DNA from: Podarcis vaucheri
Taxonomy: Eukaryota
Direction: 5' to 3' (one strand)
Length of the DNA: 64,000 bases
NCBI GenBank assembly: GCA_965113315.1
Contig: OZ220372.1
The notes under the pieces were generated by a model that worked only from the letters and a program-made list of their open reading frames with translations, did not search any database and was not told the DNA's origin. Positions 1 through 42,277 of this stretch are shown here, one piece after another. The translations under genes were made by a program, and so were the position numbers. The number at the start of each line of letters is the position of its first letter. The stretch's first letter is position 1.

Positions 1-734
1 CCATGGCTTGACACCCAACGATAAGCTTCTATCAAGTGCAGGAAACCTAAAGTCCTCCAAATATTTGCTAGACTTCAGTTCCCATTATCCCTGCTCATTC
101 GCCACATGGGCTGAAATTGATGGGGGTTGGTGTCTATGTCAGGGACTGGGAAGAGGAGGAATGGCGGAGACTGAGTCCCCAGCCTGACCCTTCCAGAGAG
201 GAAGACAGTTCAGAATTACAACAGGGGTCTGAGGGAGATCAGAGCTCAGAGGCAGATGAGGGAGAAAGCTGGGAAATAATGGGAGAGGAGGAGGAAGCAC
301 CAGAGAGCGGACAACTGATGGACGCAGTGTCTTTAGTAAGCATTCCAGACCCCCTCTCTCCCAGAACCCAGTGAGCACTGATAGTAGGAGAGCAGAGAGC
401 TCAGAGGCAGAAGGCACTTCTCAGAACCCATAATAAGGATGCATAAAGGGAGAGAAGGAGGGGGTGGAGAGTCATTCAGGGCAACGCCATTATTTCAAGA
501 GGCAGAAGTGCAAGCCTCTCTGTGAACATTGAACAAAAAGCAGTTGGTAAGAACTTTTCCTTGTCTTATCCATTCCTGGCGACCTGCCATGGGGGTTGGA
601 TCCACTGCTGCTGTTAGGGATTTATGACTCTCCTCTCACACCAAGACACAGCCATTCGACAGGTTTATAGTTTCTTGGATTTATTGGGTAATTACACAGT
701 CGCTCAATTGGAGCCCCTCCTTAATCATTCCTTC

Positions 735-736
<2 letters not shown>

Positions 737-786
<50 letters not shown>

Positions 787-903
787 GTTATTTATATCCC
801 GCCCTCCCCAGCCAAAGCCGGGCTCAGGGCGGCTAACAACAATAAAACAGTACAAAAGTACAGCATAAACAACACTCTAAAACCATTCATTATAAAATTA
901 ATT
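737..903 (-). mobile_element. L2-clade LINE 3' end with (AAT)n tail
   Basis: (AAT)n at 737-783 followed by the reverse complement of the 3' terminus seen at 1450-1514. Confidence 0.8.
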
Positions 904-1056
904 GAGTCAGATAGCCCACATGCTTGCCCCCCTTCCAACAAAGTAATTTCCGACCCAGACCCCGCCCCCTTCCTGCAGAACTGACATCTATCCTGGAGTT
1001 TGCTTCTGCACCGACTGCGAGGAGATTCTGGGAAGACTGGCTCCCCGTCTTCCCCT

Positions 1057-1514
1057 TCTACGTACCTATGGGACTGCCTCTCCTGGTATGCCCCACGGAG
1101 AACCTTAAGGTCCACAAATGATAACATTTTGGAGGTCCCAAGTCGCAAGATGTTTAGATTGGTCTCAACTAGGGCCAGGGCCTTTTCAGTAATGGCCCCG
1201 ACTTGGTGGAACGCTCTGTCACAAGAGACTAGGGCCCTGCGTGACTTGACATCTTTCCGCAGGGCCTGCAAGACAGAGCTGTTCCGCCTGGCCTTTGGTT
1301 TGGACTCAGTCTGACCCTTACGTTTCCCTCCCCCTTTGATCTATGGGCTACTTTTAAAATGAGGCTGCATTTTAAATTGCATTTTAACCTGTATTTTAAA
1401 TTGGGGTATTTTTTTCCCTATTATGTTTTTACTGTAATTTTACTGGTGTTAGCCACCCTGAGCCTGGCTCTGGCCGGGGAGGGCGGGGTATAAATAAAAT
1501 TTATTATTTATTAT
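1057..1514 (+). mobile_element. L2-clade LINE, 5'-truncated (ORF2 C-terminus plus 3' UTR)
   Basis: Encodes YAPRRTLRS...RAFSVMAPTWWNAL...FRRACKTELF, a typical L2 ORF2 end. TTA-rich tail. TSD TTCCCCT at 1050-1056 and 1515-1521. Confidence 0.9.
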
Positions 1515-1850
1515 TTCCCCTCTTGGGCCAATCCCAAATCAGACTCAGTCAGCCTCATGCTATCCTTGGAATCTGCAGCCAACATTCCTGAGAGGGGAGG
1601 GCTATTGTCACTCTCCCTGTGTAAAGACGCTCACTCCCCCCTTTCTCCCTCTGAGGTCTTGCCAGCACTTGAAGGATGCATGCTGGCAGAGGGAGAAGGC
1701 ATGTTCCCGACAGCCCCCTGACAGTCCAACAACATCTGGAGGACGCCAATTTCCAAACTCCCTTTTCCAAGCTCCTGGTTGGGACTGGAGCCAAATCTGA
1801 TGCATCTGGGCTCAGTGATATTTATTTATTTCATTTTGAAAATTGAGATT

Positions 1851-2100
1851 GAGAGCCAGTGTGGTGCAGTGGTTAAGAGCGGTGGATTTGTAATCTGGTG
1901 AACTGGGTTCGCTTCCCCACTCCTCCACATGCAGATGCTGGGTGACCTTGGGCCAGTCACACTTCTCTGAAGTCTCTCAGCCTCATTCACCTCACAGAGT
2001 GTTTGTTGTGGGGGAGGAAGGGAGAAGGAGATTGTTAGGCGCTTTGAGACCCCTTAGGGTAGTGATAAAGCGGGATATCAAATCCAAATCCAAACTCCTC
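1851..2100 (+). mobile_element. Squam3-type tRNA-derived SINE
   Basis: A-box/B-box head, CORE-like GTGACCTTGGGCCAGTCAC, and near-identical copies at 24013 and 30226. Confidence 0.85.
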
Positions 2101-2961
2101 ATTTCTAACCATACTTCATCAAACAAGCTGCCCCAGAGCACAGACCATAATACCACTGTGAGAACAGGTTGCTGGACAAGATGGGTCATGGACATGATCC
2201 ATTAGGCTCTTCTTATAGATCTTTCCACTTTATTCAAAATGAGCAGGTTTTTCTGCAGTTGCCCAGTTACAGCTGCCACTTTTATTATCATCTTATTGAC
2301 AAGCAAGTTAAAATAAAAACACATACTATTCTCCAGTTTCTCTCCTGTTCAGCAGAAGGCCAAGGCAAGCCCTACATATCACTCTAGCCTTCAAAATAGG
2401 GGATAAGTGGATTTTGAAGTAGCACTTAGTTCTTGGCTGGGTACAGAAATTACTTTTTAGTTGTTTCTATGAATTATCTCCTTGATGCATCCCTGTTGCT
2501 GGGGCGCAGGCCTGCAAAATGGTAACAGCTTGTACGCGCTCTCTCTCTCATCAAAACTCTTACATCAGAAAATGGTGCTTTCAGATAAATTCTCTTCTAG
2601 CTTCTTTTATATGTTGTATTGCAACAGTAGGTGAAAGCAGAATCTACCAATCCTGTGGAGGAAAAGAGACCGATGAAATATAGGGAAATTAACAGAACCT
2701 AATTATTAAAATTTAAAAAGCTTTCATAGCCCTCCCTGGAAAACATATCTGATCTGTGTAAGAAGATAATGCAGCCAAAGCTCCTAAAGGTGAGACCAGC
2801 AGAATATTCTCCTCTCTCTGAAGCTGACTATTGTCATATCAGCAACTTTCATCAAGTTTGATGCAAATGGACAGACACTTTGTGTCAAATGTGATTAAAA
2901 GGTCCCAAACAACAGGCCTTTGTAATGCTGGGCTACAGGCATAGGAACATTAGAAGTTGCC

Positions 2962-3304
2962 ATATGGTTCTTAATTGTAAACTATACGCTGATCTCCATC
3001 AGCGATTTCTAGATCAACTCTGTATCCCCAAATGGAAACCAGAGTTGGAGGTCATACATTTTCTATTACTGGGGAATGATCAGGAGCTCACCAAGTTAGT
3101 TGCTAAATATCTCTATTTCGTTTTTTGTCGTTGAAATACACTGCAGACATCTGATCTCCCTGGAGACCTAGAGATGTGACAATAGACTGCTCTGCCTCCT
3201 TTCTTTTAGCAAATGTTTTGTGCCACTGGGGAAGTGCTAATTCTGTATTGATTTGTTTTGGATGTTTCTATGTGATGCCAATAAAAGGTTTGATGGTGAT
3301 GATG
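2962..3304 (+). mobile_element. LINE 3' fragment (RTE-X-like)
   Basis: H-x-x-L-x-C-x-x-Y end of a zinc-knuckle-like ORF2 C-terminus (HMVLNCKLYADL...FLL...VAKYL), AATAAA and a (GAT)n tail. 13-bp TSD ATTAGAAGTTGCC at 2949-2961 and 3305-3317. Confidence 0.7.
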
Positions 3305-3320
3305 ATTAGAAGTTGCCTTT

Positions 3321-3670
3321 AAAGGATACTTGCAAAACCATATTGGAAAATCAGAACTCCTATTAGAATAAACAAGTTCCGTTTTAAATACTGAAATACT
3401 AAATAAGATGGATAACCATGTGTAATATAAAAAGAAGCATGAAATTAGGTTAAAGGTGTGTGAAAAAAAGTAATAGAAATGGAAAGAAATTGCAATTGAG
3501 TAGATTGGAAGTCTAACACAAAGGTGGGGTGTGGGTGGTGGATGGTGATGGGAAAAGGAATTACGGTATCTGTGGGACTGACTGAATGTACGTATGTTTG
3601 AATATTTTTAAGGATTGTATGAAATGTATGTTTGTATGCTTGTATAAAAAAGGGGGGAAGATTTAAAAAA
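3321..3670 (+). mobile_element. A-tailed LINE 3' fragment (L1-like)
   Basis: AT-rich 3' UTR ending in an A-run, flanked by AGAAGTTG(C/T)CTTT at 3308-3320 and 3671-3683. Confidence 0.5.
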
Positions 3671-3683
3671 AGAAGTTGTCTTT

Positions 3684-3828
3684 TATCACCTTGTTCATTA
3701 TTTACAATTACTGTCAGTGTCTCTCCAGGGTATCAGGGAGGGGACACTCCCAGCCCTATGTAGATATGCGTAGGATTGAACCTGGGACCTTCTCCATGCA
3801 AAGCAGATGACCTACCCCTGAGCTGTGA
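3684..3828 (-). mobile_element. tRNA-Ala-derived SINE (probably Squam2); its tail lies at about 2940-2961
   Basis: GATTGAACCTGGGACCTTCTCCATGCAAAGCAGATG is the reverse complement of a tRNA-Ala-like head. The tail is separated from the body by two LINE insertions. Confidence 0.7.
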
Positions 3829-4175
3829 TGCAGCCAGTTTAGTTATGAAACACACTCTTAGCTGCTTCTCTGGGGCTACATGACTGTCACAATTCCTGGC
3901 TCAGCAGACGTGAGGTGGTTGCATATGTACCAGTATATTAACCTCAGACATGGGACTTGTCTACCACTGGTCTTCAGAGGTGCCCAACTTCTTCTGCTTC
4001 CCAGTTTCCAGTCATTGACCTAAGACACGTTTACTTAAGGAAGATCACAGAGGGCAAGTCTTCTGTCCCCTCCTGCTGCCCTGCAGTCACAGAAAACTGG
4101 TCAAGAGGGATGCAGCCCTCCTGAAGGATGTGAGATGAGACACAGGTTGCTTCTGATGAGATGAAGGTACAGAGA

Positions 4176-4640
4176 TGTCAGGGGCTGGACTGAGGAGGAA
4201 TGGTGGGAGCCCGCCCCCCTTCACCTGAACCTTCCCAAGGGCAGGAGGACAGTATTGATTTAGAACAGTGGCTTGCAGAGGGGCATAGTCCAGAGGGGAA
4301 AAGCTGGGAAATATTGGGTGAGAAACAGCTAGAAGAGGAAACACCAGGAGAGAGACAGCTGGCAGATTCAGTCTCCTTCTGACCCCCCTTCACCTAAGAC
4401 TGGATGGGCTTTGAGAGTGATAGAACAGAGAGCTCAGCAGCAACAAGCTCAGATTACCCAACATAGGAGTGACGTAGATTAATGGGAATGGAGGGGGTGA
4501 ACCTTTACTGGAAGCAACGCCATTTCTAGAGAGATATGCATTCCTTTGTCTCTCACTGTGATTATTAAAGAACACTCCTTTCATTTGGTCTGCTTATTTA
4601 CTGCCACTGGGGGAGGGATCTGATTCCCCAAAGCCTGACA
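4176..4640 (+). mobile_element. Solo LTR C (same family as LTR A)
   Basis: TGTCAGG...CCTGACA termini, 465 bp, TSD AGAGA/AGAGG, ATTAAA signal near 4564. Confidence 0.85.
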
Positions 4641-4756
4641 AGAGGAGACTTTCTTTCCGCAAACTTCCTTGGATTGTCTTAGAATCCAAGCACCTTCCAA
4701 ACTGGGCAAAAGTTCTATATTAGACAGCGGGTTTGAACTCTAGCACTGCTCCTTCA

Positions 4757-4987
4757 TAGAAAGAAGATTCCACCTAAACATTAGGAAGAACTTCCTGACA
4801 GTAAGAGCTGTTCGACAGTGGAATTTGCTGCCAAGGGGTGTGGTGGAGTCTCCTACTTTGGAGGTCTTTAAGCAGAGGCTTGACAACCATATGTCAGGAG
4901 TGCTCTGATGGTGTTTCCTGCTTGGCAGGGGGTTGGACTCGATGGCCCTTGTGGTCTCTTCCAACTCTATGATTCTATGATTCTATT
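4757..4987 (+). mobile_element. CR1 LINE 3' end
   Basis: Encodes [21 protein letters not shown] and ends in an (ATTCTATG)n tail. Nearly identical to 18165-18402. Confidence 0.9.
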
Positions 4988-5096
4988 ATTAGGCTTTGTT
5001 CATACAGAGGTGTGCCAAGATAATTGCACCATGCAATGCAGCATGCTTAGGATATGGGTTCATCCAGACCTGCTGCCTAATACACTTCCTTTACAT

Positions 5097-5207
5097 CAGG
5101 GACGGGAACTTGTGGCCCTCCAGATGTTGCTGCACTGCTGCAGTTCCCATCATCCCTGGCCATTGACCAGGCAGGACGAGGGAGATGGGAGTTGGAGTCT
5201 AACAACA
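5097..5207. mobile_element. Degenerate hAT-type MITE
   Basis: Same palindromic body (CCCTCCAGATGTT...CCCATCATCCC...GATGGGAGTTG) as 53989-54124. Confidence 0.6.
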
Positions 5208-5526
5208 CTGTCACTTTAGAACCTGCTCAACAGTATATTGCAGTTCCCTCATCGTTGCATCTTCACTGCTGGCTGACTGTTTCCTTCAATACCAGGGGTG
5301 TAACAGCAGGTGAGACCTGATTATAACTGGAATCCTGCTGTTAAGTTAATCCGTTTTTTCCAGCTGAGATTTCAAGCAACCAATTTAATTTATTTATTTA
5401 TTTAAAAACCAAGTTAATGTGAGATGTGTGTGTTGCTTACCATTTATTCATTTACTGCTGTTACCTTTCTATATAGCTTTTTAATACACTCTCAAAAGGC
5501 TGCCACCAAGGTTTCTGTTCTTTCAT

Positions 5527-5528
<2 letters not shown>

Positions 5529-5561
<33 letters not shown>
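5529..5561. repeat. (GT)n microsatellite
   Basis: Directly visible. Confidence 0.95.
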
Positions 5562-5563
<2 letters not shown>

Positions 5564-5834
5564 TGGATTTCATTTACTCATCATCTTATTCATGGAATTG
5601 TTTCTGAATGATGCTGAGATCCAGAATTTGGTACATCCATGATCCCGTGATTACAGAAAAGGTGAAAACAGGACATTTGTACTTCATACTTGTGCATACA
5701 AACATAGGGTCTCAAAGTGTTTGCAAAATATTGAAGGTATCTCTGGGCCCAAAAGCTAAGCAAACAGACAAACAAAACCTTATTCAGGCACAGGAGCTCT
5801 GAAAGGACAAGTAGATAAGACTACGGGGACCACC

Positions 5835-6019
5835 TGGTCACAGCTCAGGAGTACAGCTTCTGTATTGTGTGCAGAAGGTCACAGCTTCAATGCCTGGCAT
5901 CTCCTGGTGGGGCTAGGAATGTCCCCCATCTGAAATTCTGGAGAGCCATTTCCAATCAATGTACTGAGCTAGAGAGAGCAATGGTCTGACTCTGCATAAG
6001 GCACCTTCTTATGTTCCCC
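5835..6019 (+). mobile_element. tRNA-Ala-derived SINE (probably Squam2)
   Basis: Degenerate tRNA head, body GAGCTAGA...GGTCTGACTC, tail CTTATGTTCC. Confidence 0.7.
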
Positions 6020-6214
6020 TCATGCAGGTCCTTCCAGGTCCACCATTTTCTAGTGTAGCCTGCATTTCTAGACTCCCTAATCATAATAGGAGACTTCACA
6101 AGTGGAAGAGGGTCCCAAGGTTTGAGGGGGACCTATGCAAGTATAGCTGTGTATGTGAGGGGCTTTCTCCATTGGGGCAGGAACCTACGTTGATTCTCAA
6201 ATCAGGGCTCAGTC

Positions 6215-6500
6215 TGCACTATACACCATGCCAGTTTAAACAGTTGTGGTTATCCCCAAAGAACCCCCTACAGGAGCTGTTGTTGGTTAAGAGTGGTGAA
6301 AGTTGTCAGGAGACCCCCTATTCTCCTCACAATTGCTATAATTCCAGAGCACCCTGGTGAAAGCGGCTGATGATTAAACCACTCTGGGAATTGTAGCTTC
6401 TACCAGGATTCTTTGGTGGAGAGCATGACTGCTTTGTGAGGGGTTCTCCTCACAACCCTCAGCAGTCTTAGCAAACTACAGTTCCCAGCATTCTGTTGGG
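6215..6500. mobile_element. Degenerate palindromic MITE (PIF/Harbinger-like); relatives near 21875, 26500, 33020, 44740 and 62075
   Basis: Shared CTACAGTTCCCAG / GGGAATTGTAG / GTTTGTTAAGGGTGCTG motifs in several dispersed copies. Confidence 0.5.
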
Positions 6501-7009
6501 CAGCCCCTCAACATATTACACCATTTGCTGGGCCCACAAGCCTCTTTCTGTCCATAGCTGCAGCATTTCCGCAAAGGTTTCTGGAAGCTTTTTCAGATCA
6601 TGCAGTAGCTGGAACCATTGCTCTTGGCACCTGCAGACTGCCTTAAAAAAGAATAATAACTCTGACCTTGTGCAATGCATTTTTCTCATTGTCTTCTTTC
6701 CTCCTGCTGTTCTGGCTGCAGTTGGAGATTTCGACTGCAGTCCTGCACACAAGTGGGCTGCTAATTCCTATTCAAGTTAAAAGGATTTAAGTAGCCTAAC
6801 TGTGAGCAGGTTTTCCATTATTATCCTCTACCTGCCTCCTAATCTCACAAGGAGTAGCTTGTCCATTGATTCCTCCTTTTCATTGGCTTTGGAGTCCTAC
6901 GTATAACAGTATAATGTTGGCCAAAAGCCAACAGTGCCTCGAACTATTATGAGTTGAGCCCAAATGCTACCACCTGGCTGCCACCCCCCAAAAAATTATT
7001 TTTAACAAC

Positions 7010-7010
<1 letters not shown>

Positions 7011-7066
<56 letters not shown>

Positions 7067-7106
7067 TTTATTTATATCCCGCCCTCCCCAGCCGAAGCCG
7101 GGCTCA
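7011..7106 (-). mobile_element. Very short L2 3' terminus with (AAT)n tail
   Basis: (AAT)n followed by TTATATCCCGCCCTCCCCAGCCGAAGCCGGGCTCA, as at 790-826. Confidence 0.8.
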
Positions 7107-8865
7107 ACAGTAGCTTCAAAGCAAAGCAATGGTTTTTTGTTTTTGCTTTTGCTTTTTTGCTTTTTAAAAAGAAACACTCCCCACTCCCAAATTAATATAT
7201 ACAACTTTAGCATTGATTTTCTTAGTGTGTTGCACCTGGGGTTGCTGGTAAGGAAATAATGGGCCCTTTCATTGATGTGAAAAACTCACTTTAATCAGGA
7301 TCTGTTCATTTGCCTTCATTCAATATATTGTAACAATATTGAATATTTCATTGGCACTGTTCATCATTTCTAAAGAATGTTACTTTCAGTGGAAACAAAT
7401 TGACGCACACAATCCCTTAGGACTGTGATGTGCTACAAGCCCCGCATGTTTGAGAGCATGTATGCACATTTCTTTCCTTTCTTTTTTTAAAAAACACCTT
7501 TCTCTGTATTCAAAGCCAATGAGATTAGGAGCATCTTCAAACACCAACCACTGGGCCAACCCCCTTTGAAGTGAAGTCTGAGGCTTTGATTTCAGGTCAC
7601 TCCCCATGTGGCTATCTTTAAAGTTCATCAGAATTAACATTTGCTGGTATTTTTTCACCTCCCAACTCTGACAGTTGGCACAATCATTAAGAATGGATAA
7701 TAATGCAACTAAACCTCAAAGTTCCATTAAATCATTTAATGCCACATTGTTCTGTAATGAGCGTGGCATTTTAGTCCTTCTATAACATCGAATGCTTTCT
7801 TTTCCGTGGGTTTGGGAGGGGGGAATTTTGATTGTGATTGCACTAAAGTGGACAGACATGGTCTGATAGCTCTCTCAGACTCAGAATTGAGGATTCCTAT
7901 TTAAATTAAAGATAACAGGCGGGATTAGAAAAGGTACAGTGTTAAAGAAACCACAAAAGAGGCATTTCTAGCTTGGGGCTTATGGAACTTGGTCTTCCAA
8001 TAGTTGTCATTCATGAATGAATATCAGAATCTCATCTGACCATCTTGAGAAGACAGATGTTTTCAAAGTGATGCAATGGATAATTCCACCTCATTCTGCG
8101 GGGGAGGGGGGGACAGGGGCAGTTAGGTATCTAAAAATTATTCTATTCTATTTGTTTTGTTTTGGTAGGAATTATTTATCACATTACCTTGAAAACATTT
8201 GTCCTGTTCTGTGTATCTCTTTGAAAAATGTTCCCTACTGTGTTCCGTCCAGCAGGTGGTTTTAAAAATTAAAACTGAAAGACTTAAAAAGAGATTCTGA
8301 AACCCAGAAGGCATAATTTGAGATGGAGCAACATTTATCAGAAGGATATGCAGGTTGCTATTATTGTTACTTCTAAATCCAAGTGGATTCAGTGAATCAT
8401 CCCCACTCTCTGTGAGCTGTTTGCCTCCTCCCCACCACACCTCCCCCTATAACAACTTTAATTCAAACATTTGTATAACATTTTACCTCTTAATCCACTG
8501 TGGGTGTTAAACCTGCTATGAATATTATTATTACTGTTAATCGAGATTTGTAATCTCCTGCTAGCTTCAAAGTAGAAAAAAAAGATTTGCTTCTCTGCCT
8601 TGTCATCAAAACAACTTATGTGATGTAGACCACTATTATTTTCACAGGACATCCAAGGAACTTCAATTAAGTAGGGCAGAGTGGAAGGCCCCAAATGGCA
8701 CATTACATTAGACCAAATGCTGGGTCTATGTGTGAACCCTCATACTAAAGAGTAAAGGACTTTGCCCTTTACTCCCCACTGTGATCCTGACCTAGATCCC
8801 TCTATCACCACCCCACTGGTAATTTGCATTGGTGGAGACTTCCCATTCTCTTCAATTATCCCCTA

Positions 8866-9093
8866 CAGTGGTACCTTGGGTTAAGGACTTAATTCGTTCT
8901 GGAGGTCCGTTCTTAACCTGAAACTGTTCTTAACCTGAGGTACCACTTTAGTTAATGGGTCCTCCCGCTGCAGCATGATTTCTGTTCTCATCCTGAAGCA
9001 AAGTTCTTAACCCGAGGTACTATTTCTGGGTTAGCAGAGTCTGTAACCTGAAGCATCTGTAACCTGAAGTATCTGTAACCTGAGATACCACTG
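8866..9093. mobile_element. Tc1/mariner (Tigger-like) MITE
   Basis: TIRs CAGTGGTACCT...GATACCACTG, TA TSD on both sides, internal TAACCTGA repeats. Confidence 0.85.
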
Positions 9094-9405
9094 TATTCAA
9101 ATTTATGGAATAGAAAAGCCTGGCATTCATACATAGGTAAAGTAACACACAGCTTGATTGTAGTACAGTATTTGAATGCCATCACACCACACCAAATCCT
9201 ACGCTCACTCTTACCTGCAAAGCTAGACATTATTTGGGATAAAGGGTGAGCTGCAAGAGAAAAACATAGAGTTGAAATTACCTAAAAATATACCTACTGG
9301 ATCAAGCAAAGGCCTATCTATTCCATTATCTTGTTCTAATTGTGGCTAACTACAGTGGCTAGCTAACCTATGGAAAACCCACAAGCAGAACCCAGCTGCT
9401 ACAGT

Positions 9406-9697
9406 CAGTGGCGTAGCGTGGGTTGCCAGTGCCCGGGCCTCATGGTGAACTGGGGGGAGAGAGGAAAATGGACAGATTACACACGTGCATTCAACTGCCT
9501 AAGGGTGGCTATGTCACCCAGGAGACCACAGCTACAGAGATAAGAAAAGAAGAGTTGTTCTGTTGTCTGGAGAGGTCACTTTCAGGTTCAAATGGAGAAA
9601 CCAGCAATGGAAGCACACAGCCTTATTGAGGCAGCACCAAGTGTTGAAATTCTGCACCTGGGGAAACCACCCCTGTGCCCCCCACACTACACCACTG
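9406..9697. mobile_element. Non-autonomous hAT element inserted into a CR1 3' UTR remnant
   Basis: TIRs CAGTGGCGTAGCGTGGG and CCCACACTACACCACTG. 8-bp TSD GCTACAGT/GCAACTGT matches at 6 of 8. Confidence 0.65.
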
Positions 9698-9739
9698 GCA
9701 ACTGTACTCTCCCCATTTGTGTTTTCCGGGAAGGCTGCA

Positions 9740-9932
9740 CAGTAGTACCTCTGGTTACAAACTCAATTTGTTCTGGAGGTCCATTCTTAACCTGAAACCT
9801 TTCTTAACCTGAGGTACCACTTTAGCTAATGTGGCCTCATGCCGCAGCCATGCTATTCTCATCCTGAGGTAAAGGTCTTAACCCGAGGTACTACTTCCGG
9901 GTTAGTGGAATCTGTAATCCGAGGTACCACTG
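9740..9932. mobile_element. Tigger-like MITE, same family as 8866-9093
   Basis: CAGTAGTACCTC...GAGGTACCACTG with CA/TA flanks. Confidence 0.8.
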
Positions 9933-11363: not shown

Positions 11364-11540
11364 CAGATAGGTAGCCGTGTTGGTCTGCCATAGTCAAAAT
11401 AAAAAAAATCCTTCCAGTAGCACCTTAAAGACCAACTAGGTTAGTTCTTGGTATGAGCTTTCGTGTGCATGCACACTTCTTCAGATACACATATCTTCAG
11501 ATACACATATTGGTGAGCTACTGGAAGGATTTTTTTTATT
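11364..11540 (-). mobile_element. Penelope-like element (pLTR fragment with short inversion)
   Basis: GGTAGCCGTGTTGGTCTG end, 12-bp TSD TTTACCCTGTTA (11352-11363 and 11541-11552). Same family as 44997-45385. Confidence 0.8.
11451..11488 (-). ncRNA. Minimal type I hammerhead ribozyme motif
   Basis: Minus strand reads GUAU-CUGAAGA-A-GUGUGC-AU-GCACAC-GAAA-GCUC-AUAC: intact core, stem I GUAU/AUAC, stem II and palindromic AGCU stem III. Confidence 0.75.
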
Positions 11541-12420: not shown

Positions 12421-12427
12421 ATACACA

Positions 12428-25072: not shown

Positions 25073-25140
25073 CATAGAATCATAGAGTTGGAAGAGACCA
25101 CAAGGGCAATCGAGTCCAACCCCCTGCCAAGCAGGAAACA
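25073..25140 (-). mobile_element. CR1 extreme 3' end
   Basis: CATAGAATCATAGAGTTGGAAGAGACCACAAGGG is the reverse complement of the CR1 tail. Confidence 0.85.
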
Positions 25141-28273: not shown

Positions 28274-28726
28274 TGTTGCGAATCAAGCCTTTATCAGGAG
28301 AAACTGGCCACTCTCCAGGCACCCGGCTTGATCTCCGGTTGACCTCCCTGTCTGCATTTCCCGGCAGGATACAGGCTAGGTCGCGATAGGCGATCCTTCT
28401 CAGCGTGAGAAGAACACACCACTCTTTCCTACAGCCCCCCCCCCCAGGCAGGGGAAAGAGATAGACAGAAACGTATTTACATGGCTTTATTTCTGTCTTT
28501 GCAGCGTTACAGAAAACACATCTGCTCTCTTCAAACTCCAACAGCCGAGAGAGTAACTCCTCCTGTACTTCCTGTACAGCTCATATTACACTCTGAGCTA
28601 ATTCCGGTGCTTCGCACTGTGAATAGACTGTCCCTCTGTTTCCCATGGAACAGTCCCAATATTCCCATTATGTTTTGCTTTCAAGATAGCAGCAGCTCGC
28701 GGCTGCATTGCTTCTATATCATAACA
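28274..28726 (-). mobile_element. Solo LTR D2 (same family as D1, inverted)
   Basis: TGTTGCG...ATAACA, perfect TSD GGAAG (28269-28273 and 28727-28731). Reverse-complement match to D1. Confidence 0.9.
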
Positions 28727-30516: not shown

Positions 30517-33064
30517 AGGGTTTAGGTAACCCTGTGCAGGAGGTATTATCTTAACAAACCTCTGAAGGGTTCTCATACATTGCTTAACATTAGTTATAAA
30601 CATTAGTTATCACAGGAGCCATCTCTGGGGGGCCCTGAGTGCCTCAGGACCCACAACATTTCCACTGTGGATGCCTGGCTGGACGACCCAATGTGTCGTG
30701 CGTGTGACGACACACAGTGTCACATAGGTGCCATCTCCATGGGCCCGTGGGCAGAGACCTCCTCTGGAAGATGTGCCCTCTGTTGCCCCATCCCCACCGC
30801 TCCAGCAGTGACCAGGCCAAGGCCTCCACCGAGAGGCCTCCATTGAGGCCCTCCAAAGCTGCAGACACACACTGGAAGCCAGACATACAGCTGTGATTTC
30901 TGTGTGGCAGGACTAGATGAGCCTTTGGTTTCTTTCCACCTCTCTTGCAGGGTTGTGGAAAGAAGGAAGGAGCCATAATTTTACTTGTGAGCCTACAATT
31001 TGATATCTTTTTAAAACCACTGGAAAAAAGTTTGTTTGTGGACAGCTCTTTCAGTTTACGAATTCTGAAGTTGCCCCTCCATCAACAACAGTATCCTGTG
31101 CCGGCTTTGAAGAAGGAGCTCCTGTGAAGTCCTGGAAAGGGAGAGTTTCTCATATATTGTATATCACTTAAAGAAGGCTCCCATTGCATCAGTACAGGAA
31201 CAGCTGTGCAGGAACATCCAGGAACAGCAAGAATACCCCTTCCCCTTGCTTTGTAGTCTCCAAAAAGGCAACGTGAAAAGAGAGCCATTCTCATTATAGA
31301 AATGGTAAACAAAATGGGATCCCGTTACATGGTGTCATTTGTATTTGAGGGCCATTTCAGAAGATCGGTGAAGGTTCCTGAAAGCAACCTCCTTGGGGAA
31401 ATCAACTACAGAAATGACTGCAGCAGCAGCAACATTTGACATCAGGACTAATACTGCCAGGGAGATAAAGGAGAATTGTTGCCAAACTTCTATGGAGGAA
31501 AACCTAGTAGTTTATAAGAAACATGGGCTTTGTGGTAGAATTTTGTGGACTTGCTAGACTTGTTTGTCCTTGCTAGACTCTAGGCCTGAAACAAAATGTC
31601 ATATAAAATTAAGATTGAGAGAGAATTCCAGAATCAGTTCAAGTTTTTTTGAATGTGGAACATTTTTTAAAAAAAAGTTTTGAAATTTGAGTCTCCAAGC
31701 AGGCAAAGTTGATGAATTTCAGTACAAAGTGATGACCTTCCAGACTAATGTTCTTATTCAAACTTAGTTATCCAGCAACTTTTATGCATAAATGTTCCAG
31801 CATAGTTTTTGACTCAAAAATATAGTAAAGTACATTTATATTATTTTACTACAGTCGAGCAGAATATAAATTTTATGAAATGAAGAATAAATTGAAAATA
31901 TGCATTTTAGGAGGAAAATTCATTCAGACAGGTTTGCACTAAAATAGTGTAAAATAAATATTTAAAGGTGGATTTATTGGTGGGTATTTTGTTTTTATTT
32001 ATTTTATAAAACATATGTACCGCATGATTGTAAAATAAAAAAGAAGTATAAAGTTATTGGTAAAAACATTTAAATATTTTAAAAAAATAAAACTAGCAAC
32101 AAACTAAAAGAACACCAGCATTCTAGGTATCTGAGTAGGCTTGTCAAAACAAAAATGACCGCTCCCCGCTTAAAATGGGGGGCGCCCTTTGCGTGGACGC
32201 GTGCAGCCCCTAGATCTGGAGCGGCCCCAACAGCATAGGTTTGGCTTTGCCTTCCCACAGGTGGGATACCTGGAGGTCTCCGCCTACCTGACAAAAAGAG
32301 TATTATGAAGGTGCCTGCCTGATATAAATAGGTGATATCAGGTGATTTTATGGGTGATTTGTGCACAACAAAATCAACAAGGAAACATTTGCCAAGAATT
32401 AAGTAGGCTAGGACCAGACAGTTCTGTAAATTAGATTTTGATGCAACCCCAAGACATTATTGAGTATTTATCACCATTTTCTTTTGGTCTTCTTGTTATG
32501 GGTAAACTGGCTCAATTGCTAGAGACAAAAAAGCAGACCAAGAGCAGCAGCAGAACATCCAAGAAACAACTGCATAGAGAACTGGGTACCAATCATGTTT
32601 ATTGGTCATCTACCCAGAAGTTCCCAGAATTCCTGTAAGTCTTTGTATCAGTATTTGAGGAAGGCACCTGAGGTGGACCCCAAAATTGTGTCCTCCTACC
32701 CACTAGAGAAGAAGGGATGAGTGAAGATCCACATCAGGAACAAGGAGGGGAATAAAAAGCTACATCAAGATCTGCTGCCCCTGTGGAGTCCATCACCCGA
32801 GGCAGTCACCTCACCTTGCCTCATGGGTGGGCCGCCCCTGGCTGCCATTATATTAATGTTGAACTATGTCATCTTACATATACTATACAATGGGCATATT
32901 CCATGGGACATAAATGTCCATCCAGACCCGTTATTTTGCTAACCTGATATTAAATGCAATTCACAAATACAGAAACAGGATAGAACTGATTTATGAATGA
33001 ACATAGGTGAAACTGGGATGGGCCACATCCACACCACACATTTAAAGCACTATTATGCTACTTC

Positions 33065-33234
33065 AACAACAACAATAACACCACCACCAACAACAAGAAC
33101 AATTTATTATTTATATGCCGTCCATCTAACTGGGTTCCCCCAGCCATTCTGAGCAGTTTCCAACAAACTAAAACATTAAGCACAGTAAAACACCAAACAT
33201 TAAAAACTTCCCCGTACAGGGCTGTCTTCAGATG
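33065..33234 (-). mobile_element. L2 3' end inserted in a MITE
   Basis: Degenerate tail followed by CCCAGCCATTCTGAGCAGTTTCCAAC...GGCTGTCTTCAGATG. Confidence 0.7.
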
Positions 33235-33344
33235 TGCTTCCCCCAAGGAATCACGGGAACTGCTGTTTGTTAAGGTTGCTGAGGGTTGTTAGGAACCCCT
33301 ATTCCATTCCCTGAGCTCTCAAGAGTGGTTCATGTATGATAAGG

Positions 33345-33770
33345 TGTCAGGGAACTGCCATCAGAGGCACGGGAGAAGGAGAGGGTCTCGGATTCTGCAG
33401 TGCACTAGAGGGAGACTTAGCCGGGAAGAAGGGGAAGAGAATGAGTGTAACACCAGGGATCCAGGAGAGCAACGGGACAGGGAGGTGCAGGGGCTCCAGG
33501 ACTCTTCGTTGGAAGTTAGCGAGGAGAGCCCAAGCACCCCGCTGCCCACGCCCACCCTGCGCAGGAGACTCCCACGCAGTGAGAGGCGGAAACGATTGGG
33601 CGTCAAACAACTCTTATGTTGGCAACGCTTTAAGAAACACCCACAGTCAGATTCTACAAGTGACTAAGGGCAGCCACGCTACTATGGGCTGCGTAGTCCG
33701 GAGGGTTTAACCAGGCAATCCGATGCTCAAACGGAGCAGGATTACGCACGAGTAACTCCCAACCATTACA
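33345..33770 (+). mobile_element. Solo LTR E, CpG-rich (young)
   Basis: TGTCAGG...ATTACA, 426 bp, perfect TSD TAAGG (33340-33344 and 33771-33775). Confidence 0.9.
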
Positions 33771-34846
33771 TAAGGCTATCAGTGGCTACCAGCCAGGATG
33801 GCTCTGCTTTTGCCTCCATGGTCTGAGGCAGTGATGCTTCTGAACAGCAGTTGCTGGAAGCCACAGGGGTGAAGAATGCTCTTGTGCTTTCAGGCTTCCC
33901 TTGGGCACCACCTGTGATAACAGGATGGGCTGTTGGCCTCGTTCAGCAGGTTCTTCTTACTCTCTTCCTTCCTTGGACTGTGGGTTGGTTTTAAAACTTC
34001 TAAATCCGACATTCACTGCAAAGTTATGGGGTGGGAGAACCCCATAAAATGACAGTAAGTGCACCCTTCGCTTTTCACCCACATCCATAGCATAAAACAT
34101 GAAGCCATAGGATGTGATTGAATCAATTGCACATCCAGCCCACCGCACAACCTGGGTTTTAAGCAATACTAACAAAGAAAAAACCATATAGCATTGTTTG
34201 AGGGACCTATAATTAAAGAAGTGATTTAACTGCTTGTTTGTCTGATTTGGCAAATGGCAGATTTTCTTTTTCTTTTTCTTTTGAGCTACCGAAGCTGTAA
34301 TTACACTGCATCAGGAACTGTACATTCGATAATATTCTGTTGTGCATGCATATGACTGACTGTAACACTTAACTTTTCTAAAAGAATAATAGCAAAAAGA
34401 CCAAGGAGGTACAGAAACAATGTGCAGTTCCGCAGTCTCCCCAAACTCTTCATTTAGCTGTCTATGTAAACATGCCAAGTTGCCATAGTAACTGCCACAT
34501 CAGGATACTACTTTTTTTTTTGTACCTCTGAGATACAGAACACTTCCTTTGCCAAAAAACAAAGAAAAATGGGATGATGAAACACCAGCATTTTGTACAA
34601 TTTAAGAACATGATGGGCTTTTGAAAGCATATATGAGAAGAAGGCAGGAAATGACCCTATAGCCTTGTTTAAAACATGCAGATTAGCCTGTTGGATCAAA
34701 CCAATGGCCTATCTGGTGCAGCAGTCTGTTCTCATGGTGGCTGTCCAGCCTCTTCATGTGCATCATCTTCTGCTGTGTTGGGTTTCAATATTAAATGGAA
34801 AGCAGCAGATAATTTGCCACAATGCTGCTTCATCAGCATTACCTAG

Positions 34847-35278
34847 TGTGACGTTCATGCAGAGCCCTTGGTCGTCTCACGGACTATTGACATGTACACC
34901 ACTAATCCGCTGCCACCAACCATGTCCTCCCTGGTAAATCACTTAGTCTCAGTCAGGTTCTTAAGTGAACAATGAAGATTGTAGTTTATTGCAAACACAA
35001 ATAAACTTTAAATGCATTCGAAACGCTGTTACCCTTTACCCTCTTAGTCTTATTTTATTCTGTCTCTAACTCTTCTACCTCCCCTCAGACAAGAACCAAC
35101 TGCACTGTCTATTTCCATCTGTCTGCCAACTGCTTTCCCAACTGTCTTTTCCCAACCAACTAACTAAACCTCGGGCTATAAACAGGTAGGCTGCACCTCT
35201 GGCTTTTCTATTGGTCTACCTATTAACCCTTTCTCTCCCCCTGTACAGACATTTTCAAACAAACAGGCAAACGCCACA
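34847..35278 (-). mobile_element. Solo LTR G
   Basis: TGTGACG...CGCCACA termini, TSD CCTAG/CCTCG, TTTATT near 34985 and ATTGG near 35209 in minus-strand LTR order. Confidence 0.75.
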
Positions 35279-36321
35279 CCTCGGAAAATAGGAAGGAGCC
35301 TTGTACCAAATCTTATACACTGGAAATGCCCATCTTGGAGACACTTGATATTGAATCTGGGACTTTTTTATGTGCATGTGCCTTACCACGGATCAATTGC
35401 CCTTTTTCAAAGAGTATTTCACATCATTCTGCATTCAGAGCAGGCTGACAGTATCACTTGCACAGCCGGCCTTACAGCAATGCACCATCCTATCTGCTCC
35501 TGTTATCTACACAAGTTCTCACTGCTACTGCCACTTCTTCCTTATCTGGCAGTGGGGGGGGGGTGGACAGGAGGTGCCCATGGTGGACCCGGATTTAGTA
35601 CACGACCCTCCACACCACCCCACCCCTCTCCACCAGAGAAGCAAGGAAAGGTAGCTGCAGTGGCAACATTGGCTTCTGGCTTCCGGCAAAATCTGCCCCC
35701 CACCCACACAAAAAAAGCACTTGGCATGAATCAGAATCTTAGATAGCCTTATTTTATATATTGATTCTAAAAGTGCAGATTTGAAATGAACACTAAAGAC
35801 TTGCACTCACTGCCATCAGAGTCAGTAGGAGCTTTTTCTACTGACGCAAATGTGCAAAACAGCAACAACAATAAAACCCCAAAACTTGCTAAAAATTATC
35901 CACAACAGTTCAGGCTAAAGTGGATTGTGAAGAAGTGCATAATAACGCAAAACATGTAACGAAATGAAAGTAGCGGTGATGTGCAAAGTGGGGGAAATGA
36001 ATCCTAAATACACTTAGATCCTGCTGCGTTCTGCGTTAGTTTTAGCATGAAAAACAGATTTTGGTGTCATTGTGGAAAATGTCTCGGAGAATCATCGCAG
36101 TGGTGTGTTGTTGCAGCCATCAAAAGGTCTGCAGAAATTAGCGAATATGAGGAATGAATACAACAGTCTTGAAAATGGCATGCCCCTGTAGGTGAGAGTG
36201 GGTTGGCAAAGTGGTTTGAAAGCTATTTTATTATTTCTGTCCCAGTGTCTCACACCGGAATTAGAAGCTTTCTCCCTTGCCATGGCAATTCCTCAAAGAA
36301 AAAAACAGATTGTGGAATGGC

Positions 36322-36755
36322 CAGGGCCAGATATAGGTTTGATGAGGCCCTAAACTACTGAAGGTAATGGGGCCCTTTATATGTCCAGCTGTCCTTTGTC
36401 AACAACAAATTGCCACTGTTTTTTGGGTTGAATATATGCTATATGGTAATTTATGGACCTAATAGGTATCTAAAGCCATTTGTACATGCAGAATGTAGGC
36501 ACGCTATATATAGAAATGAGCAAACCAGTGATATTTTAGGGAGCAGACTAGCAGGCGGGGCCCATTGCTTACATCATAGGAGCCTGCACAACACAAAACA
36601 CTATTGCTGTATGTAGGATTTATTTTATGTGTTTTTAATCTTATATTTTGGAAATGTACATTCAGGTGTTTTTTTCCTTTAAATTTTTTTGGGGGCCCCA
36701 AGAAAGTGGGGCCCTAAGCTATAGCTTTTTTAGCTTATACGTAAATCCGGCACTG
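36322..36755. mobile_element. Non-autonomous hAT (Tip100-like) element
   Basis: TIRs CAGGGCCAGAT / ATCCGGCACTG, perfect 8-bp TSD GGAATGGC, subterminal GGGCCC motifs. Confidence 0.88.
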
Positions 36756-38511
36756 GGAATGGCCTTTTATCCCAAGTACTTCTTTCTTTGGATGTGTTGG
36801 ATTCTCCTCAGGGAGACACATCTGGAATTCATGTCAAACTTCGTCTGTTGATGGGAAGTATAAGCAAAGTCATAACAAATTAAATTTTACTCATGCAAAT
36901 AGTCTTGAGTGATGGATCACCCCAGATGCGATGATCAATAAGAACCCTTCCTCTCCAATATTTAGGCCATATCAATTAGCAATACTAGGATTAGTCTATG
37001 AAAATAGGATAGAGCCTGGTTCTCAAGAGATCCCATTCAATTTTATGGAGCAAAACTGGAAAGCTTTCACAAGAGAGTAGTGGACACAGTTCCAAGGCTG
37101 AGACAGGGTCCTCCCAGGCAGTGATGGCTCAATGCATGATACTGCCTGGAGTAAGGCATAAATGCATACCCTCCAAATTTTCTCCAATGAAAATGGGGCA
37201 TCTTATTCATTCATTTATTAATTCATTTTCCACCCATCTGTGTTGCCCTGTAAATAAATAATCCTGTCTGACAAACCCCTAAGCACCCCTAGCTACTTCC
37301 CTAGTGAGGCCCTATCTGGCAGTTAAACTGTCAAATTCTACCTTTACCAACCCTGATTGGTCAAGGGTCTCAAGGGTGACGTCCCAATGGTTGGTCCATG
37401 ACACAGCCATCCAGTGCCCAGAAGCCTCCAGGTTATTGTGCCAGCTGTTGTGTGAGTAGACAACTGCAGGTAGTTTGGACTGCTATAGTCACATGGAGAC
37501 CTCTGAATATATGTTGGCTGGTTTATAAGCTGCTGTTTGAAACAGACCCATCATTCTCACATCATTAGGTTGTGTATGTGTTGTTGTTTTTTAAATGTAC
37601 CATAGCTGTAGGAAACAGCACCATTCAGTGGAAGAGAATGTAAGCATATTCTTAATTTTCTTTATGGATTATGTACTTAAGAAGAAGCACGACCAAATAG
37701 TAATTCAAAGGACATTTAAAATGTTTTCAACAGACATCACAGAGGAACTTTATCTGAAAATCTCATATATTTAATGCCTACAGTTTGCCAATACAGTGTT
37801 TATTTCTATACCTTGGCCACACAGCAGGAGAGCCATAAATAAATATAGCCTCCACTGTTGGTTAAATGGCTTTGGCCAAAAGCTCTGATTAATGTACTTA
37901 CATGAGCCAGTTGACATTAGCCCTCCTAGTCTATCGAAAAGTAGAAGTGACTTCCAAGTGTTATAATTGCTATGCTTTTTTTTTTGTCTGAGTGGCTAAA
38001 GTGGTTCTGTACAAGCCAGAAGCAAATGCTGAATGCAGAGCTTTGCTGTGGTTGAAGCAGATTTGCAGCAGACACAGCTCTGCAAATATGAAGTAAAAAT
38101 GGCCAAAAAAGAAATAGTACCCATAACACCTCAAAGCATAACATAGAGATCCTGCCCTAATTTTGCACTGGATGAAATGTCTCCAGCTTCCCTTGGATTT
38201 ACTTGGATATGACCCGAGTTCTATTTTTTTAAAAAATGGAAAGGAACTGAGATAATTGACGCTGACATCAAGACTTGTACAAAGATCCTCAACCCCCCAG
38301 CACTCACCTGTGTTGCAAAACGATTCAGGTAGGGAATTAAAGAAACACCAAGTTGCCCTTTAACAGGTTTATTTGCTAGATAATAATAAAAAGCACAAAG
38401 CATTAAAAAGCTATTTGAGTTGCTGGGGAATTCCCTCCTGAACACCAGTGCATCCTGTCACTCCTACATTCCATTTTCACTTTTTTTGGTTGTTGATTGT
38501 GAAAGCTAACA

Positions 38512-38872
38512 TGTATACCTGAAGGAGCGTCTCCACCCCCATCGTTCAGTCTGGATACTGAGGTCCAGCTCCGAGGGCCTTCTGGCAGTTCCCTCACTGC
38601 GAGAAGTGAGGTTACAGGGAACCAGGCAGAGGGTCTTCTCAGTAGTGGTGCTCACCCTGTGGAACGATACAGCATTAAATATTAAAAACTTCCCTAAACA
38701 GAGCTGCCTTCAGATGTCTTTTAAAAATAGGATAGCTGCTTATTTCCTTGACATCTGATGGGAGGGCGTTCCACAGGGCGGGCGCCACTACTGGGAAGGC
38801 CCTCTGCCTGGTTCCCTGTATCCTCACTTCTCGCAATGAGGGAACCACCAGAAGGCCCTTGGCGCTGGATCT
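38512..38872. mobile_element. Two L2 fragments fused tail-to-tail (+ strand 38512-38667, - strand 38668-38872)
   Basis: Both match the L2 at 59130-59390, in opposite orientations. Confidence 0.85.
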
Positions 38873-41824
38873 AGAGCAATGGGGGATATTGGAATATCTG
38901 CTACAGTTTCCCAGGCATCAGAAACCATGGGGAATTTCAAAGACCCTAGTAGGGAGGTCAGGAATCATAGGAGCTTCAGTTCCCTCTAGTTGCTGGGATA
39001 CTGTTGTGAGCATCTGTTCCTGTTTCTGCTTCTGCATAAGTTCTAGGAGAAGGTGCAGATGGGAAGCTCCCAGGTCCCGTCATTGTCCTGGTAACATGAT
39101 AAGAAGTATTACAGGGCCACATTTATGAATGGACACAGGGAGGAAATGTATTATTTGTGTAGAGGATTGGGTTTTTCCTAAGTCCATTCTTAATTGAGCC
39201 AGGATTTCTGGAGTGCCTGGAAGCGGGGGCGACAATGACACCCGTCCATCACTGTGAAAAGTGTCTTTAAAGATCCTTTCTGTTCAAGACCCTTTTTTTA
39301 AAGACTTCATTTTCAATTATTCCTATTCAGGGAGGCCGATCATAAAAGTTTCCCTCTCCTCAGCCTGTCCTTTTGTCCTTACCCTTCTGTTCCTCGCCCA
39401 ATTCATCACAGTTCCTTCTGCAGCACTAAAAGCAATGGAGGGTGTGAAGCAGTGGGATGCCATCCACTCTCCTGATCAGGCTGCCTGCTGAGACCAAGTG
39501 ATTTCAAAACACAACTAACATTTGAGAGCAGTGAAAACACAGTGGGAGGATGCCATTCGGCAACAATCACCCTGAAGCTGGTCTGGAACACTCAGTTGGA
39601 TTACCTCTATTGAAGGAGCAGAACCCTCAGAGCTGCTCAGATCTTTTCCCAGGCATTCTCCTATTGTCTTGTGTGCCAGAGGAAGGAATGGCATAGAGGC
39701 AGGTAATTGGTTCAAGCCTGCCATGGCCCTCATTGATTTACCTGTCTGCCAGGTGTGCAGAAACACAAAGCTGTGTGGATTCCATGCGTTCCAAGGAGAT
39801 GCCAAAACTTCACATCTGGCACAGAAGATCTGCTTCCTCCTGAGTTCTGCAAACTTTAATGGTTTTATTGTTGGGAGGAATGGGGATTTTAGCCACTGGC
39901 ATTGTGAAAAACAGCTGGATTTGTGTGTCTGTGTGTGTATGGTTTTGTGTGTTTTTTTGAAAAAGAGATAAGTTGCTCAGCTATCAATCTGACTGAGTGG
40001 CCTTGGGCAAAGACACTGTCTCACAGCTGAACCTACACATAGTGATGTTATGAAACAAAAATACCATTCTGATAGCCAAACTAGACATGATGCTAAACAT
40101 TGTCACTTGGAATCACATTAGAGGTTAGGTTTTTTTATAAAATAAAATAAAAGAAGAAGATATTAGTAGATATGGGAGGCATTTTTACTGGGACCACTAT
40201 GCATGGAGAGGTCCTGATTAAAATCCACACACATACAAGCTGTTATTCATCCTGGGGGGGAAAGCATTGGTTCTTGGAGGAAAGTGTGAGATACAAATGG
40301 AAAACTCTTAACCATCTTATGCATATTTGGAAGTTATGTTCTACAAAGATGCCTAGAAGCTATTCCCAAGTAACTTTGCACAGTCCTTGAGAGCAACCCT
40401 TTTATTGCAGCATCAAGTTTGGCCTGCCAAAATTCGTCAAATTTGTTCAGTAGATTAAGAAACTTATTGATTAGGAAGATTAAGAAAAATGAGGTGCGCT
40501 GGAGGATAAACCAAGTTAACAAGGTGAAAACTAATAAGCACAAATACACAAACAGAGAGAGAGAACAAAATCCATATATTGACAAGCTGGGATGTATATA
40601 GTAGAACCTAACCTAAAGAGCTGAATTTTGCACTGAATTAAATGGACAACATATTGTAAGTAGGGTGTGCTCTGTGTGTATTGGAGTTCTGATGCCTGCA
40701 GCACTGTCTCAGGGCAAGACAAATGTTACAAAAAACCTATAGTGAATCCATATTTGTAATATTATAATAATACATTTTGCATGGAATATTTGTTGAATCT
40801 CAGGCTTTGATGATAACCCTTCAAATGTTATTCTCAAAAATTCTGAGGCCATTCCTGAGGGAAGGAGTACTATGGAAATCATCCAAATGAACATGCCAAA
40901 ATTAAAGAGATTGGTGGAAACAAACAAACCCCCACTAGATCCTCAACAATTGAACGTGTTGATTTGTTTAGGGAGGTTTATAAATGACTTGTGATATCAT
41001 TTCCTGAAAGGAAAGATGAGGCATACTGATCCACCCCCCTCTTACTTTAGGATGGGGGTGGGGTTTGATTTAGTTAGTATTTAAAGGCAAAGCAACCTAA
41101 CTTGCACTTTCCCAAACAATACATAGACTAAAATGCTTCAAAATTTACACCTCTCTGAATTTTTCAATGCAGTTCTCCATTCAAGTAACGTGTACAAAAA
41201 TATATGAAGTGTGCATAAAAATGCTTAGTGAAAATAACATAACAAAAATCAAGGGAAATTGCATTGCAAAAAATGTGTGTGCAAAAATGTGTTTATTAAA
41301 AGCAATCCACACTAAGATTGTTGATTAATTTTCATGCAAACTCTCAAAATAAATAAATGTGGAAATGTGAAGACATGGAGAACTGAACTTAAGATGGAAG
41401 AATGACAACTTTTGTGTGACTAGTAGAATGTCTCGGGAGATGGAAATATTCTCCCAATTGCTTCTGAATGTTGCCATTTTCTATGTCAGCAAGCAGCACC
41501 AGTGGCAAACCAGCAGACTGGTATCCATAGTTAGATGCTGATAGTCACTAGGGCTGTTCAAAGCTCCCCTGAAAATGTTGTTACTCTTATCAAAACTCTT
41601 TTAATTTCTCCCTTATAGATCTCCTACGTTTTGCCCAGGCACAGATTTCCAAATTCACCAGATATCTATATTTATGAGGCTTTGCATCTTTACAGACTGT
41701 TAAATGGTATTTACTAACTCACAGGCTGGAAAACATCCCTTTAACAAAATGCATCTTGTAAATATGATTTACATTATTCACCCAATATCAGCAAGGGATA
41801 CCAGCAGAGACCTGCAGGCAGTTA

Positions 41825-42277
41825 TGTAAGCGCCAAGCAGATATGTACTCTGCATCTCCAACCACGTCTGTTTCACAAGACATATCCAGGATCCATTACA
41901 CTAGGTGGCTGTGTCTTTTCATTGCAATTGGGACGTGCTTTCTTCATCTTGGGCTACTAGTTCTTAAGTGTGCCTAGTTAAACAAGTTAAAATGTAATAA
42001 AACATAGAATAAAACACTGAAGCTAGTGTGTGCTAGTTGTCTGGAACAAGGTCATTGTCTGCATTCCTAACTTAATTTGAGTGACCGATGGGCCCATGGA
42101 GATGGAGGATCCCCCATACTCTCCAGGGAGGTCTCTGCTGGCTGCGCTCTCACCTCACCTTCCTCCTCCACTATCTCGTAACTAGGCAATTCTTCCCCTT
42201 CCACCTCTTCTTCAGAGAGAAGCTGATCAAACTGAGTGCACACTTCCCAGTCTTCCTGTTCCGACCATTCCCTGACA
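41825..42277 (-). mobile_element. Solo LTR F
   Basis: Minus strand begins TGTCAGGGAATGG, like LTRs A, C and E. The far end (TGTAAG at 41825) is tentative and no TSD was found. Confidence 0.6.

Follow-up and report, generated by a model that had tools for sequence, protein, structure and literature searches.

An integrase tail almost certainly encoded in the long terminal repeats of squamate chromoviruses, with a possible role in nucleosome tethering

The 64,000-nucleotide stretch of Podarcis vaucheri DNA analyzed here (contig OZ220372.1 of assembly GCA_965113315.1; hereafter the window) contains several divergent long terminal repeats (LTRs) of retrotransposons. Five of them, designated A, B, C, E, and F, had been described in a sequence-only reading as solo LTRs sharing a cryptic acidic, S-P, and arginine-rich reading frame that begins at LTR base 2, and this frame had been proposed to encode the C-terminal tail of an integrase. 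All five base-2 translations were recovered at the positions given in that reading, and the elements concerned are listed below.

137-611 plus 1713-1723, plus strand: solo LTR A, flanked by the target duplication GTCTA/GTCCA and interrupted by LTR B
138-446, plus strand: remnant integrase-tail frame of A, with 78 open codons, one stop, then 23 codons
612-1712, minus strand: LTR B, nested in the 3' end of A in the opposite orientation
1711-1515 and about 1062-905, minus strand: tail frame of LTR B
About 1063-1514 and 730-904: repeat inserts in LTR B
4176-4640, plus strand: solo LTR C, with target duplication AGAGA/AGAGG, homologous to A
28274-28726: LTR D, a negative control from another lineage, without a base-2 frame; a tRNA-type primer-binding site (PBS) is present in 2 of 29 relatives
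33345-33770, plus strand: solo LTR E, with target duplication TAAGG/TAAGG
33346-33667, plus strand: tail frame of E, interrupted by a single 11-nt deletion (LTR position 56)
33643-33653, plus strand: putative self-primer of E, 11 nt complementary to the PBS of the element, overlapping the last tail codons
42060-42277, minus strand: LTR F, a 5' LTR fragment (about 220 bp) whose frame stays open for 69 codons from base 2

The TG..CA termini and 5-bp target duplications of A, C, and E confirmed these three as solo LTRs, but F is a 5' fragment with an internal deletion, for which no 3' end was found, and B is nested in A. The frame of B had been thought to be interrupted by a single insert; an insert is indeed present, but there are two. 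The tail frame of C contains frameshifts near LTR positions 31 and 203. E is 99.3% identical to its nearest open-frame relative and differs from it by three substitutions and the 11-nt deletion; the stop and the frameshift noted earlier are both there, but they have a single cause, since the stop results from the shift introduced by the deletion. Only the A-C pair could be aligned clearly at the DNA level, as had been stated (score 82 versus a shuffle maximum of 29), the A-E alignment being marginal (29 versus 27) and the remaining eight pairs falling inside the shuffle range. The absence of a base-2 frame from LTR D and from a further LTR, G, was also confirmed. No Pfam match was obtained for five tails, and among the 115 window open reading frames (ORFs) only one fragment, of a long interspersed nuclear element (LINE)-type reverse transcriptase (RT), scored above the cut-off.

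A chromodomain search gave 2780 candidates, 150 of which were scored, and returned long intact ORFs. These ORFs, of 1212-1564 amino acids, encode RT, RNase H, integrase, SH3, and chromodomain in this order, followed by an LTR-encoded tail. At four loci (L067, L068, L069, and L076) the ORF crosses the chromodomain and the polypurine tract (PPT) and reaches its stop about 330-350 nt into the LTR, and the same read-through was observed in L071 and L072, whose LTRs are 100% identical. Pfam identified gag, protease, RT, RNase H, integrase, SH3, and chromodomain in both L067 and L071, which thus show the chromovirus domain order (protease-RT-RNase H-integrase with a C-terminal chromodomain). Full-length copies, the material on which the sequence-only reading had suggested that its idea be checked, thus bear out a pol that runs past the PPT into the LTR in the base-2 frame. 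At the usual junction, LTR base 1 is the third position of a codon. Searching for the pattern of a purine tract and then an A/C-type LTR start produced 16 matches, against 0 in the reversed control.

The link to chromovirus pol was then found in some copy of the window families E, A, F, and B. In family E, the frame from base 2 is open for exactly 110 codons in 28 of 29 other copies, all eight PPT-bearing copies are in frame with the chromodomain, and the pol of one member, L172, is 76-79% identical to that of L071. A whole chromodomain in frame was found in relatives of A (L182-L188, L194, and L036), and a chromodomain in frame also in relatives of F (L201, L206, and L026). L144, a relative of B, carries integrase/SH3 sequence and a PPT upstream of the LTR, but is frameshifted; in a sister family of B, the junctions are mostly in frame. 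LTR C, for which a first look gave 2357 candidates across the 1.6-Gb genome, is placed as a probable chromovirus LTR through its homology to A and through C-like copies. Tail length stays near 100-117 codons across families whose pol is about 47% identical. A, B, C, E, and F are probably LTRs of a squamate Tf1/sushi-type chromovirus clade.

Selection on the tail was analyzed in five non-overlapping pairs of real copies, aligned as DNA without regard to frame. The ratio of nonsynonymous to synonymous substitution rates (dN/dS) in the base-2 frame was 0.34, 0.41, 0.26, 0.36, and 0.30; it was 0.75-3.4 in the other two frames of the same pairs and scattered around 1 in the region after the tail stop. 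Pooled changes in the tail fell 53, 49, and 108 times on codon positions 1, 2, and 3 (p = 2e-7); beyond the stop, the corresponding numbers were 28, 36, and 26 (p = 0.39). The tail indels in these pairs were multiples of three. For the basic 35 codons, excluding the self-primer, the ratio of nonsynonymous to synonymous proportions (pN/pS) was 0.22, or 0.27 with a transition bias of 3 (p below 1e-7), and upstream pol controls gave 0.09-0.38 in three pairs. Among 19 C-family copies, 13 stops were counted in 1889 codons of the base-2 frame versus 113 in 1878 and 172 in 1877 in the other frames. Five of five stops in the S-P/basic part of these copies fell in columns with a CpG codon in another real copy, which agrees with the earlier view that many codons there are CpG-decayed arginine codons.

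The frame could alternatively be a by-product: pol would have lost its stop, a purine-rich U3 would simply read as acidic, and conservation would reflect promoter or self-priming functions of the same bases. The 5' parts of the LTRs are indeed G/A-rich, dN/dS of the acidic part is 0.8-0.9 in two pairs (transition bias 3), and the frame is overlapped in the E clade by the self-primer and hence probably also by the promoter. However, the excess of third-position changes is seen in the base-2 frame alone, the indels are in frame, the low pN/pS of the basic codons persists when the self-primer codons are excluded, and the length of the tail is kept despite the divergence of pol. The by-product explanation is therefore very improbable overall and largely refuted for the basic end. 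Constraint is concentrated on this basic end, and the acidic part is weakly constrained.

Several observations count against a selected tail encoded in the LTR. For old A/C/F-type junctions, 8 of 14 were in frame (p = 0.06 versus one third), in a count that covers loci with a detectable LTR start, takes six duplicated copies as one, and drops one locus with a misplaced start. The three nearest internal-bearing relatives of B are all out of frame; for C, no internal-bearing copy was found and two C-like copies are out of frame. In a young family whose tail contains the motif RRSARL, 17 of 37 junctions are in frame and 20 out, owing to differing lengths of a homopolymer ahead of the PPT; no other single length class is as common as the in-frame one (some places may have been counted double), and the variation may reflect assembly error or real slippage. 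The acidic part has a pN/pS of 0.57 (0.72 with a transition bias of 3), a fourth upstream-pol control gave 0.89 with few codons aligned, and the tail dN/dS range of 0.26-0.41, which speaks for the selection postulated earlier, was obtained by a simple counting method on pairs picked for open frames. Taken with the read-through and codon data, these points leave it almost certain that the frame is a selected integrase tail encoded in the LTR.

Two other observations concern the PPT/LTR junction. Presumed-RNA contigs from a related organism (two studies) bridge it, but any genomic transcript would do so and they were given no weight. For the E region, no RNA data set was listed as carrying it. 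A second open frame of 210 codons also crosses the junction in family E (L171:5378-6010, minus-oriented, L172, and L177), but with dN/dS of about 1.2 in its own frame it shows no selection and was rejected as coding. In both L027 and L032 (just upstream of position 1510), an A-type LTR is preceded by a duplicate of a short LTR start and a PPT, which looks as though this LTR had taken up its own PPT.

The encoded tail, of about 100-117 residues, has an acidic front and a basic end. Net charge is -4 to -19 over the first 62% in 16 of 17 open tails, and the rest is positive in 15 of 17. [quoted passage not shown] The order of motifs was examined with a strict rule (acidic, then S/T-P, then basic) and 1000 dinucleotide shuffles per sequence, of which only 0-8 passed, so that the pattern is not one that shuffled sequences give equally often. 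Among 193 window tiles a single one passed, and this tile is E; likewise, E was the only window copy to pass, in the frame shifted by its deletion, and three of five open relatives passed in the base-2 frame. Two features in the earlier description were less well supported. The CDK-type S/T-P site is not invariant, being present in 14 of 17 open tails and missing in 3, among them that of a family whose LTRs are 100% identical; the full consensus S/T-P-x-K/R occurs in 1 of 17. The NLS-like helix (NLS, nuclear localization signal) is not the arginine run: the predicted helix is a short VKQLLCW-type motif.

The motif RRSAR[LI] occurs in 5 of the 17 open tails, namely three from one sister family and two from Anolis proteins: RRSARL in the young lizard family and RRSARI in Anolis. 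A motif of this type arises in 0.01-0.07% of shuffled tails of the lizard families. The nucleosome acidic patch is the binding site of the RRSAR core in HMGN2 and of related motifs in Dsup and Dot5 (10.1101/2025.01.06.631586; PMC12871379), and the HMGN core has been modelled on the patch by cryo-electron microscopy (10.1101/2025.01.06.631586); viral proteins are also reported to use this patch (PMC9040877). As in these proteins, RRSAR[LI] stands near the end of a predicted disordered, charged region in the two sister families; unlike in them, it is found here on a retrotransposon integrase behind a chromodomain, and not in the five window families.

These data suggest the following course of events. 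Pol would run past the chromodomain and the PPT for about 100-117 codons into the 3' LTR, and thus add an acidic, predicted disordered linker and an arginine-rich end behind the chromodomain. The tail would stay on the mature integrase, its basic end, by analogy with the HMGN core, would contact nucleosomal DNA or the acidic patch of H2A-H2B, and it might serve as a second chromatin contact beside the chromodomain. Since a single template gives rise to both LTRs, the tail coding sequence would be retained in every solo LTR, presumably as a decaying fossil that lacks a start codon and an upstream promoter. For this explanation as a whole, that is, a read-through tail whose selected arginine-rich end likely tethers integrase to nucleosomes through an acidic linker, we estimate a probability of about 0.6. 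Chromatin tethering as the principal job of the tail has, in our judgement, somewhat better than even odds.

Some points weigh against tethering. RRSAR[LI] was not found in the A, B, C, E, and F window families, for which the tether is an extrapolation because they have only looser arginine clusters; RRxxR is all that is found in the E clade, and this is matched by 30% of shuffles; and the LTR boundary in Anolis was placed from the protein alone. No solved structure matching the RRSARL tail was found, and no usable match was obtained from the Atlas.

The principal rival to the tether, although compatible with it, is that the basic end acts mainly as an NLS or as a docking motif for a host targeting factor, possibly switched by phosphorylation. 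Ty1 and Ty5, in which such motifs are known, are Ty1/copia elements, and their C-terminal motifs are not known to be LTR-encoded. Like the squamate tail, the integrases of these elements carry short C-terminal motifs, which direct import or integration, with phospho-regulation on the Ty side: the C-terminal bipartite NLS of Ty1 is reported to hold the targeting domain, Ty5 targeting to need phosphorylation (PMC7459421), and Ty1 integrase to be a CK2 substrate (PMC9673352). The split of charge along the tail would suit such a role, as would the confidently predicted short helix with invariant L, C, and W that ends the E-clade tail. However, the basic ends are rich in arginine and not in lysine, the element conserved between lacertids and Anolis is RRSAR[LI], and the S/T-P site is missing in 3 of 17 tails. 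We thus consider import or docking rather unlikely to be the main function of the basic end.

Among the 120 relatives listed, 107 have a chromodomain motif, 31 have at least 60 residues after it, and 4 contain RRSxR[LIF]. The two Anolis proteins display a junction-like motif, an acidic stretch, S/T-P, and RRSARI in that order. In a tree of RT-integrase regions from 41 sequences, the RRSARL family, Anolis, and the E clade were joined with a Shimodaira-Hasegawa-like approximate likelihood ratio (SH-aLRT) support of 100, and the squamate families adjoin frog and fish relatives; this tree was quick and midpoint-rooted, with the careful search unfinished, and included no named reference such as sushi-ichi. 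UniRef contains Podarcis proteins with tails under a generic name. Many fish relatives end about 20 residues past the junction-like motif. Many of the fish proteins P0025-P0069 have a basic stretch containing RGRP, which we take to be AT-hook-like, right after the chromodomain, and a short S-P-E-F/Y end.

Tf1 is known to prime from its own LTR (10.1101/2022.12.06.519325). A PBS complementary to 10-11 nt of the element's own LTR was found in four families here, and every one of the 7 5' LTRs of family E has a self-primer matching the PBS, two sequence variants being present; no such match was found in L293 or L297, and no 5' LTR was found within 9.5 kb upstream of ten 3' ends of A, B, C, or F type. 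The self-primer lies at LTR 307-335, within the last tail codons, in three E-clade families, and at LTR position 392, past the stop and 30 nt after a TATA-like box, in the RRSARL family. By analogy with Tf1, the transcript would start at the self-primer. In the E clade, the end of the tail would then lie in R, and the promoter of a solo LTR could not transcribe the frame. The proposal that U3 encodes the tail thus needs amendment for the E clade, in which the tail end is probably in R and not in U3. In the other lineage, to which LTR D belongs, the copies L264 and L275 are followed by a tRNA-type primer site, TGGTAGCA.., which resembles that for initiator Met tRNA.

The sequence-only reading had further proposed that each solo LTR disperses a ready-made peptide module. 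In an extended form of this idea, host genes would have taken up such modules as exons. Thousands of candidate copies exist, many of them with an open frame, and two Podarcis gene models, a P4-ATPase and a Gla-domain protein, include pieces of the tail (P0123 and P0125; L283:362-505 and about 2500). However, the copies in the window are broken, the frame has no start of its own, and the probable transcription start lies at or past the frame end. The ATPase model ending in an E-type tail was rejected as an exonization event, being apparently a prediction artefact that reads through a splice donor; at this locus, an ordinary last exon lies about 1.9 kb downstream and no matching LTR is present at the junction. 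Three protein searches yielded no credible host protein with the tail. None of the 39 candidates scored in a search with the A tail against longer proteins passed, and a profile of the A, C, and F tails matched no more than 6 of 1.84 billion proteins, all of them singleton ORF calls from 0.5-1.2 kb contigs. Uptake as host modules is thus highly improbable, and there is a warning here that gene predictors can stitch open frames of LTRs onto host genes.

Pol ORFs extending into the 3' LTR have been described in plants: in CRM chromoviruses, the ORF passes through the PPT and the LTR part corresponds to a putative CR targeting motif (PMC3059260), and in the beet Reina elements Bingo1-4 and Bingo7 the ORF is likewise reported to extend into the 3' LTR (PMC3605345). 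The squamate elements share the ORF extension with group A of the CRM clade. However, in CRM the CR motif replaces the chromodomain and priming is by tRNA-Met, whereas the squamate elements keep a canonical chromodomain upstream of the PPT, to which the LTR adds a separate acidic and basic tail, have a PBS of the self-priming type, and reside in a vertebrate. They are thus CRM-like in layout, but are not CRM members. With Tf1/sushi elements they share the domain order, the C-terminal chromodomain, TG..CA LTRs, 5-bp duplications, and a PBS complementary to the LTR; in contrast, most fish relatives carry a basic stretch before the junction-like motif, and the squamate tail is about five times longer and overlaps the self-primer in the E clade.

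In the literature covered, no LTR-encoded tail in lizard or other vertebrate chromoviruses was found, but the read-through may already have been noted in Butler et al. 2001, the main paper on vertebrate Tf1/sushi elements, in repeat-library reports, or in supplements. No HMGN-type motif in a retrotransposon was found in that literature either, and the terms 'ORF' and 'open reading frame' are absent from a survey of LTR structure in which the Sushi clade is covered (PMC3601003).

LTRs are usually seen as non-coding, but here most of an LTR of 440-640 bp is coding and under selection. Because of this, solo LTRs can be recognized at the peptide level after DNA similarity has been lost, which provides a means of classifying lizard solo LTRs by the thousand through their encoded protein. 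The tail also offers a short, testable candidate for the engagement of vertebrate chromoviruses with nucleosomes, in parallel to the targeting motif of plant centromeric retrotransposons. More tentatively, and by analogy with HMGN proteins, a squamate lineage might, before the split of lacertids and anoles, have stored a second chromatin-reading module in its LTR, an HMGN-type arginine anchor for the acidic patch borne on a long acidic linker after the chromodomain, giving integrase a two-point grip on the nucleosome; in one subclade the same bases would also serve as promoter region and self-primer, and thus fulfil three functions.

Finally, a few observations were made on other elements and on the genomic distribution of the copies. 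Another LTR-like element, at window 34847-35278, has TG..CA ends and the duplication CCTAG/CCTCG, and no base-2 frame. At 16.0-16.7 Mb of contig G000:C26 (L182-L198), about 15 copies of one old A-family 3' fragment follow one another at a spacing of tens of kb, so that this fragment lies in a tandem segmental duplication. Contig G000:C41, which at 41 Mb makes up 2.6% of the genome, holds about 63 of the 150 scored chromodomain matches (counted by hand) and, among 30 E-family loci, all 15 LTRs with internal sequence and only 2 of the 15 solo ones, a pattern that would fit a non-recombining W chromosome.

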